6,906 nt of DNA, from the IMG/VR virus record IMGVR_UViG_2617270945_000017, one strand, 5' to 3'. Positions 3,220 through 6,280 of this stretch are shown here, one piece after another (within the stretch, counting starts at the first letter, position 1; every line of letters begins with the position of its first letter). The DNA comes from a virus (lineage: Duplodnaviria > Heunggongvirae > Uroviricota > Caudoviricetes). Both the position numbers and the translations under genes were made by a program. Under the pieces are notes generated by a model. That model did not search any database. It was given only the letters and a program-made list of their open reading frames with translations, and was not told where the DNA came from.

Positions 3220-4110
3220 TCACCCCCTGAATCCTGCCGGGATCTGGCTGTAGTCCACATTGTCGTAACTGGCTTTGAAGTACGGGTCTTCACGTTTTTC
3301 TGTGTGCGTGCTGACGGACGGCGATAAGCGCAGGGAAAGCTCATCCCATTTTTCCCGCAACTTCGACGGGCTGAGCACGTTACGGCACCAGAACGGATCG
3401 CGGCTGACGCGGCTGTACATCTCGCAGATTTGTTTGTGAGTACGACCATCCTGCACACACATCAGGCGAATTTCGTTTGCCCAGGCTGTCCAGTTAGGTT
3501 CTTTGGGACGAACCACCTCGCCGTCACATTCGGCGGCCTGCTCGTACAGGGCGATGATTTTTTTCCAGAGCCACTGTGCGCAGGTCAAATCATCCTGCGT
3601 TCCCCACTGGCGCTTTTTAGGGCTGAATACAACCGCATCAGGATGGCGAGTTAAAAAATCCTGTTCATCCATCTGCGTGTCCGGTTGCGAAGCGTCCGGA
3701 CGAGAAGGTTTTTTATCTGATGGATCATGTTTTGATTTTACTGACGGATCCCCGCCAGATTCTGACGGGTGAAAACCCGCTTTTTTGCCAGATTTCGACG
3801 CATCAAATTTTGACGGGTCAGATTTTGATGCGTCAGATTTTGACGGGTCAGAATCTGACAGTTGAGAAAATGCCGCTGCCTGAAGCTTCGCAACGTTAAG
3901 CTGATAAACATTCGACGCATTGCGGTTATCCGGTCTTAAGTCAGATTTCGTAATTGCACCTGACGTGCATTGCTCAAGTTTTTTAGCCAGCACAAAACTG
4001 GCTTTTTTATAGCCATTGAAAACCAGCCGTAAGTAGCCAGGTGTTGAGCCAACTTTTCCGGCCAACTCGCCCTGCTGTTCTTTGGTTAAAGAGTCCCAAT
4101 ACGCTTTCAT
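3220..4110 (-). CDS. Replication-initiator-like protein with N-terminal Cro/YdaS-like HTH and an iteron-encoded repeat linker (lambda O-like architecture), about 296 aa
   Basis: ATG at 4110 with GGAGGT 9 nt upstream. The N-terminus MKAYWDSLTKEQQGELAGKVGSTPGYLRLVFNGYKKASFVLAKKLEQCTSGAITKSDLRPD resembles YdaS/Cro-type HTH proteins, including the ...LRPD ending. The middle has pentapeptide repeats (SKSDA/SKSDP/SKFDA) encoded by tandem 15-bp DNA repeats. It sits directly divergent from the repressor. The C-terminal domain was not identified. The 381-aa ORF in the track is an upstream extension. Confidence 0.7.
   Translation of the reverse strand: MKAYWDSLTKEQQGELAGKVGSTPGYLRLVFNGYKKASFVLAKKLEQCTSGAITKSDLRPDNRNASNVYQLNVAKLQAAAFSQLSDSDPSKSDASKSDPSKFDASKSGKKAGFHPSESGGDPSVKSKHDPSDKKPSRPDASQPDTQMDEQDFLTRHPDAVVFSPKKRQWGTQDDLTCAQWLWKKIIALYEQAAECDGEVVRPKEPNWTAWANEIRLMCVQDGRTHKQICEMYSRVSRDPFWCRNVLSPSKLREKWDELSLRLSPSVSTHTEKREDPYFKASYDNVDYSQIPAGFRG
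3737..3862. repeat. Iteron array, putative phage replication origin embedded in the replication gene
   Basis: 15-bp units of form TCAGATTTTGACGGG: four contiguous copies at 3803..3862 (TCAAATTTTGACGGG, TCAGATTTTGATGCG, TCAGATTTTGACGGG, TCAGAATCTGACAGT), two more at 3755..3769 and 3788..3802, and a partial copy near 3737. An AT-rich stretch lies alongside at about 3700..3745. Confidence 0.65.
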
Positions 4111-4200: not shown

Positions 4201-4875
4201 ATGAAAACAATCCATGACATCCGGCGGTCTAACGCCAGAAAACTGAGAGATGGTGTTGGCGGGAATTCTTCCTTTGCCACTATGATTGATCGCGAGCCAA
4301 CCCAGACCAGCAGGTTTATGGGAGATGGTGCTACTAAAAATATCGGTGACAGCATGGCACGACACATCGAAAAATGTTTCGACCTACCTGTCGGATGGCT
4401 CGATCAAGAACACCAGACAACGAACATCACAAAAAAACCTGATGTTTCAATCACTAATAAACAAATCACATTAGTCCCTGTCATATCATGGGTACAGGCC
4501 GGAGCATGGAAAGAAGTTGGATATTCTGAGGTTGATTTGAGCACAGCAGAAACGTATCCCTGCCCTGTACCCTGTGGGGAAATGACTTATATCTTGCGGG
4601 TGATAGGTGATTCAATGATTGATGAGTACCGCCCGGGAGACATGATTTTTGTCGATCCTGAAGTACCTGCCTGCCACGGTGACGACGTTATTGCATTGAT
4701 GCACGATACAGGTGAAACCACCTTCAAAAGGTTAATAGAAGATGGGACACAGCGTTATCTCAAAGCGTTAAACCCAAACTGGCCTGAGCCTTACATTAAG
4801 ATCAACGGTAATTGCTCTATAATTGGTACAGTGATTTTCTCAGGAAAACCAAGAAGATACAAAATCAAAGCCTAA
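4201..4875 (+). CDS. CI-like phage repressor with XRE-type HTH and LexA/S24 autopeptidase domain, 224 aa
   Basis: The C-terminal domain carries the S24 Ser-Lys dyad motifs (RVIGDSM... and ...TTFKRL) and WVQAG upstream. The N-terminus has an HTH-like ...IGDSMARHIEKCFDLPVGWLD. The gene is divergent from the Cro-like gene across the operators. There is no Shine-Dalgarno before the ATG at 4201, which fits a leaderless transcript. Confidence 0.85.
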   Translation: MKTIHDIRRSNARKLRDGVGGNSSFATMIDREPTQTSRFMGDGATKNIGDSMARHIEKCFDLPVGWLDQEHQTTNITKKPDVSITNKQITLVPVISWVQAGAWKEVGYSEVDLSTAETYPCPVPCGEMTYILRVIGDSMIDEYRPGDMIFVDPEVPACHGDDVIALMHDTGETTFKRLIEDGTQRYLKALNPNWPEPYIKINGNCSIIGTVIFSGKPRRYKIKA

Positions 4876-4887
4876 TCAATGTTTATG

Positions 4888-4911
4888 AACCTGCTTCGGC
4901 AGGTTTTTTTA
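4888..4911 (+). terminator. Rho-independent terminator after the repressor gene
   Basis: AACCTGC-TTCG-GCAGGTT is a 7-bp GC-containing stem with a UUCG loop, followed by a run of seven T. It starts 13 bp after the repressor TAA. Confidence 0.85.
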
Positions 4912-4914
4912 TAC

Positions 4915-4947
4915 TTGACAATGTACCTTTGAGATACATAATGTACC
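4915..4947 (+). promoter_or_regulatory. Near-consensus sigma-70 promoter with an embedded operator copy (PL-like)
   Basis: -35 TTGACA (4915..4920), 16-bp spacer, -10 CATAAT (4937..4942). The spacer contains ATGTAC-ctttgag-ATACAT (4921..4939), the same TGTAC-N7-(G/A)TACA motif as the two operators at 4113..4185. A second ATGTACC follows at 4941..4947. Confidence 0.65.
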
Positions 4948-5119
4948 CAAGAGAAACAACGAACAGGCAGGACGCCCACGAAGTAGCCGCCTGGGGCATA
5001 TGAAGTCCAGGATGATTCGTTGAGTCATGTTGTGCCACTAGGCACTCATGTTAAAGCAGGTGTATGAAATGAAAGTCCAGATTTTAAACAATAACTGTGA
5101 AGTCGTTTGGGCGTAAAAC

Positions 5120-5326
5120 ATGACCGCGCGTAGACCAAGGGAGGAAAAAGTGGGAATAGTTAGAAATCAAGCAGATATATTGAAAATCAGCTCTGAATTG
5201 CTTGGAGTTTTGAAAAGTGAGCTCACCGCACATGGCATCGAGCCCACTGACGAAAATTTAAGTTGGGTTTTGTCGATTATTCAACAATCACTCAAGCCCA
5301 GCCTCAGCAAACTTTTTATCGAGTAG
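5120..5326 (+). CDS. Small hypothetical protein, 58 to 68 aa; start ambiguous between ATG 5120 and GTG 5150
   Basis: GTG at 5150 is preceded by AGGGAGG with a 5-nt spacer. ATG at 5120 has no Shine-Dalgarno but lies 3 nt after the stop of a 15-codon ORF (5069..5116) that has a good AGGTG site, so translational coupling is possible. No homology recognised. Confidence 0.45.
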   Translation: MTARRPREEKVGIVRNQADILKISSELLGVLKSELTAHGIEPTDENLSWVLSIIQQSLKPSLSKLFIE

Positions 5327-5479
5327 TGCTTCGAACTTATCGTAAAGCTTGCTTATGTCGTCTATCGGGTTTTCTGACGTACTGTAATTTTTATCTGATG
5401 TCATGGCAGCAGTCTGATATGCAGTGTGTGTCTTAACCGATAGTTGGAATAAATAAAGAATTTTTTCTTCTTTGGTCAT
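5288..5479 (-). CDS. Small hypothetical protein, 63 aa, AT-rich, convergent with and overlapping the previous ORF
   Basis: ATG at 5479 with AAGGA about 8 nt upstream gives MTKEEKILYLFQLSVKTHTAYQTAAMTSDKNYSTSENPIDDISKLYDKFEALLDKKFAEAGLE. Its 3' end overlaps the ORF 5120..5326 by 39 bp. No homology recognised. Confidence 0.45.
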   Translation of the reverse strand: MTKEEKILYLFQLSVKTHTAYQTAAMTSDKNYSTSENPIDDISKLYDKFEALLDKKFAEAGLE

Positions 5480-5770
5480 AACTATTTCCTTCTTGGCTAT
5501 ATGAAAACACCAAGATACCACCGAGCCTGAAGTGGTGAAAAGACAGGCACATAACAGCTAAGTATTTTCAACCAGAGAGAATCCTTAGCGTTGTGGTGAA
5601 TGCGGCTCAGCGCACGCGGGTTAAGGTTGAGGCTGACAGTCGACCTTCTGTGGATACCCACCCGCCTGGTGTGCAACCTTCGCCAGGCACCGGGAGGCAC
5701 CCGGTACCACAACTTTATGCTGTGTGTAGTCCTCGCGGTACCAGTTTGTACACTTGCTTCCGGCTGGTAT

Positions 5771-5870
5771 CGCTCTTTTTACAAAACAGAGAAGAACATC
5801 ACCGGACGACGGGCTCATAACCCAATCCATCCGGGCGGCAGTCACCGCAGGTGTTCTTCTCTGTTTTGTG
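5771..5870 (+). promoter_or_regulatory. boxA-like motif followed by a long perfect hairpin in the leader of the downstream operon
   Basis: CGCTCTTTTTACAA at 5771..5784 resembles the boxA consensus (CGCTCTTTA / TGCTCTTTAACAA). ACAAAACAGAGAAGAACA at 5781..5798 is the exact reverse complement of 5852..5869, giving an 18-bp perfect stem around a roughly 50-nt loop. It ends about 35 nt before the Shine-Dalgarno of the CDS at 5918. Confidence 0.4.
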
Positions 5871-5917
5871 GAGAAACCAACCGACCTTGCAGGGTCGATA
5901 TGATGAGGAGCAGCAAA

Positions 5918-6280
5918 ATGGCTAGCGAACGCAGTACTGATGTGCAGGCATTTATCGGGGAGCTGGACGGCGGCGTATTTGAAACCAAAATCGGCGCAGT
6001 TCTCAGTGAAGTCGCTTCCGGTGTGATGAACACGAAAACCAAAGGTAAGGTCTCACTCAACCTGGAAATCGAACCATTTGATGAGAACCGTGTGAAAATC
6101 AAACACAAACTCTCATATGTTCGCCCGACTAACCGCGGGAAAATTTCCGAAGAAGACACCACCGAAACGCCGATGTATGTCAATCGCGGTGGTCGCCTGA
6201 CTATTCTGCAGGAAGACCAGGGACAGTTACTGACTCTTGCCGGTGAACCTGACGGAAAACTCCGCGCAGCAGGTCGTTAA
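5918..6280 (+). CDS. Conserved hypothetical prophage protein, 120 aa (possibly YfdP-like, recalled from memory only)
   Basis: ATG at 5918 with GAGGAG 7 nt upstream gives MASERSTDVQAFIGELDGGVFETKIGAVLSEV... The long upstream extension of the 226-aa ORF in the track is Arg/Cys/Leu-rich and lies in the GC-rich structured region, so I treat it as non-coding. Confidence 0.7.
   Translation: MASERSTDVQAFIGELDGGVFETKIGAVLSEVASGVMNTKTKGKVSLNLEIEPFDENRVKIKHKLSYVRPTNRGKISEEDTTETPMYVNRGGRLTILQEDQGQLLTLAGEPDGKLRAAGR

Follow-up and report, generated by a model that had tools for sequence, protein, structure and literature searches.

The DNA analysed here (the window: 6,906 nt of the IMG/VR virus record IMGVR_UViG_2617270945_000017, Caudoviricetes) is the immunity region of an N-less lambdoid prophage of the SfV/e14/CPS-53 type. 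In this region, the early-left (pL) operon has an untranslated leader, 5550-5917, which is assembled from RNA modules. The central module, 5590-5713, is a tRNA-like pseudoknotted RNA domain of the STnc100 superfamily, and as judged from sequence and predicted fold it belongs to the prophage small RNA (sRNA) family STnc100. It is preceded by a hairpin (P0) and followed by a conserved linker with an intrinsic terminator (T1), by a long hairpin, and by the ribosome-binding site and start codon of yfdP. On balance, these modules, including the tRNA-derived STnc100 domain, seem to serve the biogenesis of sRNAs. All features of the leader described below are on the + strand.

The STnc100-type domain

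The domain is closed by the acceptor-like helix P1, in which 5590-5598 pairs with 5705-5713. P2 (5602-5605 with 5614-5617) carries the conserved YNNGCG loop, and P3 (5618-5621 with 5660-5663) was found by eye from aligned relatives. P4 (5664-5671 with 5681-5688) is the GCCUGG/CCAGGC hairpin, and its loop (CAACCUU, 5674-5680) forms a pseudoknot with AAGGUUG at 5623-5629. P5 (5690-5694 with 5700-5704) is the T-arm-like CCGGG-AGGCA-CCCGG hairpin. P4 and P5 are the two adjacent GC-rich hairpins recognised in an earlier note, which was made from the letters of this DNA alone. Both are present: the first pairs 5664-5669 with 5683-5688, one base to the right of 5663..5687 as given there, and the second is ACCGGG-AGGCA-CCCGGU at 5689-5705.

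STnc100 is a prophage-encoded sRNA of Salmonella and E. coli that is related to PasD (Rfam RF02076). The Rfam search proposed in the earlier note gave a match to this model on 5560-5782, over its full length (model positions 1-206), at 39.5 bits (E 4.7e-6), which is below the curated gathering threshold of 47 bits. The core fold of the family was found in the window, namely the closing helix, GGUGAAU, the hairpin with the YNNGCG loop, P4 and the CCGGG-AGGCA-CCCGG hairpin, and the RNA ends at an intrinsic terminator (a 10-bp stem and UCUUUUU in the fold). The copy of strain C9 (L001), 98.9% identical, scored 49.1 bits and the copy of SfV 39.5 bits; this means that the lineage straddles the STnc100 threshold. 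When the window is compared with near-identical copies, two changes from C to U are seen, one at 5705, by which the innermost pair of P1 becomes G.U, and one at 5770 in the 3' strand of T1. The drop of about 10 bits is probably caused in part by these two changes.

A covariance model (R1) was made from 41 non-redundant IMG/VR family members, with the lineage of the window excluded. On 5588-5715 it scored 69.5 bits (E 1.6e-18) over its full length, a score that is partly built in because the members were gathered by a 17-nt motif that the window shares. The dicF-dicB spacer of the K-12 Qin prophage, which does not contain the exact collecting motif, scored 69.6 bits. A search of IMG/VR for the ultraconserved CACCGGGAGGCACCCGG retrieved at least 120 loci, some of them with 3-5 tandem copies.

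P1, P4 and P5 covary. P1 is paired in 92-94% of cases, and six of its pairs are altered on both sides. The two strands of the pseudoknot change in step in almost every member, as in AAGGCUG/CAGCCUU, CCAGUC/GACUGG and AGACUGACA/UGUCAGUCU. The mean best complementarity of these strands was 6.85 nt, compared with 5.18 nt (maximum 5.57) when the loops were swapped in 200 permutations. The pseudoknot rests on this permutation test, since the register in the MAFFT bracket count differs by 1-2 columns between sequences.

The P0 hairpin (5557-5589; 13 bp with two mismatches, from the inverted repeat and the minimum-energy fold) abuts the domain. By eye, it could be extended by pairing of CAUAAC at 5550-5555 with GUUGUG at 5590-5595. 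Relatives have a hairpin of other sequence that ends exactly at P1.

Non-coding nature and folding of the leader

The leader between the small open reading frames (ORFs) and yfdP is a non-coding, structured RNA, as the earlier note had supposed for this ORF-bearing stretch. Mismatches against ST64B are distributed 23/21/23 over the three codon positions in 5590-5917 and 24/31/73 inside yfdP, where the excess at the third position is seen. Insertions and deletions are mostly not multiples of three, and in phage LLS a stop stands one codon 5' of the yfdP start. The overlapping ORFs of the leader gave no Pfam or PHROG match, whereas the flanking genes do match PHROGs. The folding that the earlier note had asked to be checked was better than that of shuffled sequences, with z-scores of -2.98 (5555-5785), -6.5 (5775-5920) and -7.7 (5555-5920).

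The linker and the terminator T1

The single-stranded linker at 5714-5734 contains the conserved motif UGCUGUGUGUAGUC. This motif is kept where the terminator stems differ, in phiES15, LLS, ST64B and IMG/VR loci. Such conservation is typical of an sRNA seed, and the linker is considered to be a candidate RNase E site. No complementary site with three or fewer mismatches to this candidate seed was found within the window.

T1 (5735-5780) consists of a stem formed by 5735-5744 and 5764-5773, a 19-nt loop and the tract UCUUUUU at 5774-5780. Relatives have different GC-rich stems followed by U5-7 at this place: GUCGGCGUC...GACGCCGAC-CUUUUU in ST64B and GCCCAUCG..GGUGGGC-ACCUUUUUU in LLS. The string that had been compared to boxA, CGCTCTTTTTACAA, is present at 5771-5784, and its CGCUCUUUUUACAA resembles the boxA consensus. 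It is in fact the 3' strand of T1 with the U tract. In relatives this position is occupied by GUCCUUUUU, GACCUUUUU, CACCUUUUUU or GCCCUUUUU, with hairpin and U tract retained; since other stems followed by U5-7 stand there, the letters CGCUCUU are not kept, and those of the site covary with the 5' strand of T1. The boxA/nut interpretation is thus wrong, and the element itself is real and non-coding.

The long hairpin and its apex

Immediately after T1, the 89 nt at 5781-5869 fold into a three-way junction (z = -6.5). Its long stem has 20 bp (5781-5800 with 5850-5869), arm A is formed by 5802-5806 and 5830-5834, and arm B by 5835-5838 and 5845-5848. The 18-bp perfect inverted repeat reported earlier is part of the long stem: 5781-5798 is perfectly complementary to 5852-5869, and in the repeat search the arms extend to 25 nt at 88% complementarity. 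It is the longest perfect inverted repeat of the window and lies beyond chance, the longest repeats in 60 dinucleotide-preserving shuffles being 8-14 bp. Related phages that have the flanking genes keep the inverted repeat.

In 18 diverse relatives, 93.6% of the long stem is paired, 6 of the 20 pairs are altered on both sides, and G.U pairs are present; one pair is C-G in nine sequences and G-C in the other nine. The G.U pairs and the compensatory changes mean that selection acts on the + strand RNA, not on a DNA site. Fifteen of the 18 relatives have one internal mismatch, so the perfect duplex is specific to the lineage of the window. A pattern search found the hairpin in many IMG/VR contigs 5' of different first genes, in some of them directly after pL. 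phiES15 has the tRNA-like RNA and the terminator without the long hairpin, which indicates that the modules are separable.

The duplex 5781-5800/5850-5869 has the length of about two turns (about 20 bp) of near-perfect pairing that an RNase III substrate needs. By analogy with Qin dicBF, where a hairpin in the equivalent place is cut (10.1101/2023.04.14.536235), the long stem is a plausible candidate for an RNase III site. The earlier proposal of a processing element and RNase III substrate has therefore kept its plausibility, with the duplex itself confirmed.

At the apex of arm A, GACGGGCUCAUAACCC (5808-5823) forms a GGG/CCC stem with a CUCAUAA loop. The apex GACGGGCUCAUAACCCAAUCCAYCCGG is nearly invariant in relatives of the long hairpin. 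Stem and loop look like the anticodon arm of the initiator tRNA (E. coli tRNAfMet). By eye, the apex pattern also retrieved apparent phage tRNA genes, for example in L221. Between the long hairpin and the yfdP ribosome-binding site, a small hairpin (CGACCU-UGCA-GGGUCG, 5882-5897) is seen in the fold; relatives have another small GC hairpin there, such as GGCGGUGGCAGCCGCC.

tRNA likeness and exchange of cassettes

P1, with its 8-9 bp, leads directly into the 5-bp CCGGG/CCCGG stem of P5, as the acceptor stem of a tRNA does into the T stem. From phage to phage, quite different cassettes fill the space between two constant flanks, GUUGUGG and CCACAAC. The Rfam tRNA model recognised two cassettes from the same slot, in L220 at 43.9 bits and in L213 at 29.5 bits (threshold 29). 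The acceptor stem of both hits is P1, and the T arm of the L213 cassette is CCGGGUUCGAGUCCCGG. On the window, ARAGORN found 0 genes and the Rfam tRNA model had no hit at E up to 1; ARAGORN was also negative in ten related loci and accepted none of the cassettes, and a canonical tRNA was rejected on this ground. The cassettes are derivatives of tRNA and not themselves tRNAs. Taken together, the hits on sister cassettes and the negative window copy mean that the latter is tRNA-derived or tRNA-like, not a tRNA.

Tandem arrays of STnc100-type copies were observed in L016 (2265-3380), L026 (342-1038), L042 and L079; the 3-5 copies of an array are spaced by about 220-480 nt. The pseudoknot sequence differs from copy to copy, and 3' of each there is a terminator-like hairpin with a U run. 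In two array loci scanned with Rfam, L016 and L026, the arrays have tRNA genes next to them.

A rearrangement is seen in E. coli O19:H7 strain 730V1 (L239 370-1160, corresponding to about 5480-5600 of the window), where 655 nt are inserted. The insertion holds the 5' part of an mEp460-type cassette, a 91-aa ORF, an apparent small minus-strand ORF (by eye) and a second copy of the flank with a pseudoknot-like element, the P0 hairpin and the start of P1. This arrangement suggests that cassettes and extra genes are exchanged by recombination at the conserved flanks.

Some further observations concern the 5' side of the domain. At 5517-5548 (+), in the interval from the start of the small gene on the minus strand to the RNA, ACCACCGAGCCUGAAGUGGUGAAAAGACAGGC allows interleaved pairings of CCACC with GUGG(U)G and of GCCUG with CAGGC. 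The same element recurs 5' of P0 or T1 in L140, in L205 and twice in L239. In several relatives, including L131 and L128 (LLS), P0 is as long as the 5781-5869 hairpin of the window. In L131, L128 and others this P0 begins with CACAAC, which can pair with the GUUGUG of P1, so that the long P0 and P1 would be mutually exclusive. Some P0 apexes of relatives contain T-arm-like GGUUCGAUUCC hairpins.

The Qin prophage of K-12

In K-12 Qin, the dicB promoter and ydfABC are followed first by a hairpin (L238 2682-2693 with 2739-2750) and by a cassette whose closing helix is GUUGUGG/CUGCAAC, then by DicF and its terminator, and finally by an R1-type RNA. DicF scored 76.7 bits with Rfam. The 53-nt form of DicF needs RNase E and the 190-nt form RNase III, and an internal promoter is absent (10.1101/2023.04.14.536235). 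Calculated from its reported length, the 190-nt form would begin in the 3' arm of the Qin hairpin. From the start of P1 to the end of the T1 U tract, the window has 191 nt, as compared with the 190-nt Qin unit. In the window as in Qin, a short RNA lies 3' of a structured cassette in an early-left operon and ends at an intrinsic terminator.

The cassette 5' of dicF (L238 2752-2866) has, by eye, the closing helix GUUGUGG/CUGCAAC and a hairpin GGGUUGUCA/UGACAACCC, the loop of which (CCAUAC) can pair with an upstream GUAUGG; R1 did not recognise it. The structured part of the 190-nt DicF thus appears to share the design of the window RNA.

The R1-type RNA between dicF and dicB is an unannotated RNA of the window type (K-12 MG1655 1,649,452-1,649,583; L238 2953-3084). 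It scored 34.4 bits with the Rfam STnc100 model, under the threshold, and the ribosome-binding site of dicB follows directly after it. The closing helix of this RNA could, by eye, be extended to about 20 bp by pairing of GUGAAUUUUGUGAUG with CAUCACAAAAUUCAU.

Proposed mechanism and alternative explanations

Non-coding status, family membership, the covarying helices and pseudoknot, the conservation of T1 and of the long hairpin, and the parallel with Qin are what the analysis shows directly. The following course of events is proposed. When repression of pL (4915-4942) by CI is lifted, transcripts would cross the leader. Those ending at T1 would give an RNA of about 190-230 nt, which, as with Qin DicF, would be shortened by two enzymes, RNase III cutting in P0 and RNase E in the linker. 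The products would be a stable structured RNA and an RNA of about 65 nt that contains the putative seed UGCUGUGUGUAGUC and the terminator hairpin and would act in trans. In transcripts that read through T1, RNase III would cut the long hairpin, and so separate the sRNA from the yfdP message and set the 5' end of that message.

Several points weigh against sRNA biogenesis by this route. The window copy stays under the Rfam threshold, and its high R1 score owes something to the shared motif, as described above. P0, with 13 bp and two mismatches, is short for an RNase III substrate. No promoter was found adjacent to the RNA (the promoter scan predicted no sigma-70-like promoter within 5200-6100, and an internal promoter was accordingly discarded), and hence the RNA would depend on pL, which is repressed in the lysogen. 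With E values up to 10 allowed, the DicF model (RF00039) still did not match 5700-5800. The simple terminator scan did not flag T1, with its 19-nt loop, probably because the loop limit of the scan is 8 nt.

A more far-reaching reading can be put forward only tentatively. STnc100-type RNAs, including the window RNA, the structured part of the 190-nt DicF and the K-12 dicF-dicB RNA, might be decayed tRNA genes, each made of a pseudoknotted mimic of acceptor and T arm, a "3'-trailer" sRNA and a terminator, with N-less lambdoid phages carrying them in the early-left leader as exchangeable cassettes bordered by RNase III hairpins. The mimic might recruit tRNA-processing enzymes (RNase E, perhaps RNase P) to free the sRNA, and the long hairpin might display the copy of the initiator-tRNA anticodon arm with a function of its own.

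Two other explanations accept the RNA but give it a different role, and each of them is considered unlikely. The domain might be a cis-acting attenuator or riboswitch, in which the pseudoknotted fold senses a ligand or protein, sets termination at T1 and so controls yfdP and the genes after it. The layout is aptamer-like (a conserved pseudoknotted fold, an intrinsic terminator 20-40 nt later, then genes), and CGGUACCA, which P5/P1 (5702-5709) shares with the 5' strand of T1 (5736-5743), would allow alternative pairing. However, this repeat is not retained in relatives with other T1 stems, so that switching through CGGUACCA was rejected. Moreover, the arrays of 3-5 copies by tRNA genes have an unrelated terminator-like hairpin and U run for each copy, the domain is replaced by unrelated cassettes between the constant flanks, and the equivalent RNA of Qin is a processing intermediate. 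About equally doubtful is a tRNA-mimic decoy, in which the domain and the anticodon-arm copy, made early after induction, would bind and distract host enzymes directed at tRNA, for example tRNA-cutting defence nucleases. It would fit with the geometry of the acceptor- and T-arm-like helices, the tRNA-model hits on sister cassettes, the wide variation of cassettes between phages at an early-expressed locus, the anticodon-arm copy in the nearly invariant apex and the arrays beside phage tRNA genes. On the other hand, neither ARAGORN nor the Rfam tRNA model recognised the window copy, and published data describe relatives as Hfq-bound base-pairing sRNAs.

The remaining explanations are all highly improbable. 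The earlier note proposed a nut- or put-type site of processive antitermination, in which boxA and a hairpin modify RNA polymerase. A boxA-like CGCUCUUUUUACAA followed by a hairpin does lie in a pL leader, and in a phage without a recognisable N gene an RNA-based mechanism is needed somewhere. But the boxA letters are unconserved and belong to the covarying 3' strand of T1, the hairpin is the 89-nt three-way junction and not a boxB-sized one (about 15 nt), and no N-like gene lies between pL and yfdP. R1 found nothing on HK022 putL/putR, and short-word BLAST of 5555-5920 against the HK022 immunity region gave matches of 9-14 nt only, at chance level, so the put hypothesis for 5540-5920 was rejected. 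A structured RNA directly after pL, at 4955-5021, is a better-placed candidate for an antitermination role. Of similarly low probability is a site that acts as DNA, with the inverted repeat bound by a protein or, as the earlier note also suggested, used in recombination. The repeat is palindrome-like and perfect over 18 bp, and rearrangements occur in the leader. Yet relatives pair through G.U, which would be a mismatch both on the other strand and in a palindrome of DNA; moreover, pairs change in a compensatory way, the asymmetric apex is conserved, and the observed rearrangement is at the duplicated P0/P1 flank, not at the repeat. Least probable of all is a real protein, encoded by the 226-aa ORF from 5600 or by an overlapping ORF of 49-113 aa. 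In the window, no stop interrupts the yfdP frame over the 106 codons before the gene, and this frame is open too in SfV, mEp460 and ST64B; the NCBI annotation pipeline PGAP labels the leader "frameshifted hypothetical protein". Against this stand the even distribution of mismatches over codon positions, the frame-breaking indels, the LLS stop beside the start codon and the missing Pfam and PHROG matches, and the sequence is accounted for by the covarying RNA helices. The 226-aa ORF, whose translation the earlier note named as a finding that would overturn its reading, is not under coding selection. With the inverted repeat kept in related phages that have the flanking genes, both refuting conditions of the earlier note speak for a real non-coding element.

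Locus, phage type and distribution

The gene at 4201-4875 encodes a LexA-like repressor with a Peptidase_S24 domain. It is followed by a terminator-like site of cI (4887-4906; terminator scan) and by a pL-type early-left promoter (4915-4942, +), in which TTGACA and CATAAT are 16 nt apart and 11 of 12 positions match the consensus (promoter scan). Operator-like TGTACC...ATACA repeats (4920-4958) overlap pL and are also present in the cI-cro intergenic region. Two small genes, at 5150-5326 (+) and 5288-5479 (-), belong to PHROG families without assigned function. yfdP, with its ribosome-binding site GAGGAG at 5905-5910, extends from the ATG at 5918 to the stop at 6280 (+; RefSeq annotation of near-identical loci; phrog_204, E 1.2e-49). 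It is the first gene 3' of the leader, and yfdQ is next. No N gene is present in the RefSeq annotations, and none of the ORFs located between pL and yfdQ matches Pfam.

The 701-base stretch 5400-6100 was matched in 2,867 of 5,426 complete E. coli genomes. The segment 5540-5920 matches phages SfV, SfII, SfIV, mEp460, cdtI, Stx2c phages and ST64B, and partially phiES15. In the six phages whose annotation was consulted (SfV, mEp460, ST64B, phiES15, LLS and F1055), the element has the repressor gene on one side and the first early-left gene on the other. The structured leader is a common, not an exotic, feature.

The RNA at 4955-5021 (+), just 3' of pL, has about 65 nt and consists of CGAACAGGCAGGACGCCCACGAAGUAGCCGCC, a covarying stem and then GGAUGAUUCG; both its closing helix and its second stem covary. 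It is kept in many lambdoid phages of Escherichia, Salmonella, Yersinia, Pantoea, Citrobacter, Klebsiella and Pectobacterium, many of them N-less. It has no Rfam match and is unannotated in nearly all the phage records listed. Its likeness to HK022 putL/putR (CGAAC.GGC ... CARGGAUGA) is faint. This RNA is a candidate for enabling transcripts from pL to continue beyond T1.

At 3789-3852 of the window, a 15-nt unit (CAGATTTTGACGGGT) occurs four and a third times, in a partly palindromic arrangement; these repeats may be iterons of a replication origin. They gave rise to a spurious mir-5880 hit, which, like the hits to CssrB, U6 and hairpin ribozyme, was far under the threshold and was treated as chance.

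Significance

The STnc100 prophage sRNA family and this kind of locus are known already, and the window copy is a slightly sub-threshold member. The tRNA ancestry, the pseudoknot, the cassette exchange, the K-12 dicF-dicB RNA and the anticodon-arm copy appear to be undescribed so far. In several records the leader is annotated as a frameshifted or hypothetical protein, and its identity as RNA corrects these annotations. Three things that have been treated separately, the STnc100/PasD sRNAs, the long DicF and the K-12 dicF-dicB RNA, would be joined as one modular tRNA-derived design; STnc100/PasD sRNAs occur in pathogenic E. coli and Salmonella. A testable idea follows, in which prophages make sRNAs from early transcripts and swap them by exchange of cassettes at conserved flanks. 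In practice, a better covariance model with the pseudoknot and defined RNA ends to seek are gained.

Comparison with known systems

With lambda nutL, the RNase III hairpin of the N leader and sib, the leader shares a position after pL and a long duplex that is possibly cut by RNase III. It differs from nutL in that the window has no conserved boxA, boxB or N gene, the "boxA" being the tail of a terminator. HK022 is likewise a lambdoid phage without N-dependent antitermination and with a structured RNA in the early leader, but 5540-5920 has no sequence or model similarity to put, and the only, faint resemblance is at 4955-5021.

The c4 RNA of P1/P7, isrK and the P4 CI RNA are, similarly, phage regulatory RNAs cut from an operon leader. 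c4 and P4 CI RNAs are tRNA-like substrates of RNase P. In SfV, Rfam C4 (82.3 bits) and isrK (64.2 bits) were found on the minus strand of L002 at 1204-1392, inside the annotated orf37, and ST64B has isrK in the same relative place (L004 21-97). In SfV these lie on the pR side, in which they differ from the window RNA, and neither model has a hit in the window. Roberts, Allison and Verma reportedly described an RNA-based immunity of SfV in 2007 (J Gen Virol 88:3187, as cited in PMC3475682). This immunity was not equated with the window region, as SfV carries C4 and isrK on the pR side, and it is probably the C4/isrK locus.

Compared with tRNA, the domain has no anticodon arm and its loop is AGGCA, not a T loop, whereas the sister cassette of L213 carries the P5 stem of the window as its T arm. 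In the incompletely covered literature, no link between DicF and a tRNA-like fold was found.

The likeness to STnc100 lies in the core GGUGAAU ... CACCGGGAGGCACCCGG(C/U)ACC, the closing helix, the 3' terminator and the prophage location. The window has GCGGCU..GCGC in place of the CCCCCU..GGGG hairpin, and its copy does not lie between Q and the lysis genes but in the pL leader, close to the gene of the repressor. The consensus structure line of Rfam marks neither a pseudoknot nor a tRNA-like nature, and the accessible parts of the STnc100 literature searched contain no description of either. STnc100 copies are expressed, one having been seen by Northern blot in enterohaemorrhagic E. coli (PMC5331693), and the Pas sRNAs, with which STnc100 is grouped, are bound by Hfq in RIL-seq (10.64898/2026.05.13.724894).

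The closest parallel in layout is Qin dicBF. It differs from the window in having a cassette of another type upstream of dicF, a second cassette where the window has the three-way-junction hairpin, and dicB instead of yfdP downstream; processing has been shown in Qin alone. Membership of 5714-5780 in the DicF family was rejected, as the model has no hit there; in the T1 region of L213 this model reached 29.6 bits, under its threshold of 48. Both loci follow a repressor gene and a pL-like promoter, and both present a hairpin, a cassette closed by GUUGUGG/..CAAC and a short RNA ending at an intrinsic terminator. P0 occupies the place that the hairpin cut by RNase III has in Qin, and the linker that of the 5' half of DicF. 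The short RNA of the window is thus not a DicF, but it resembles DicF in position and design.

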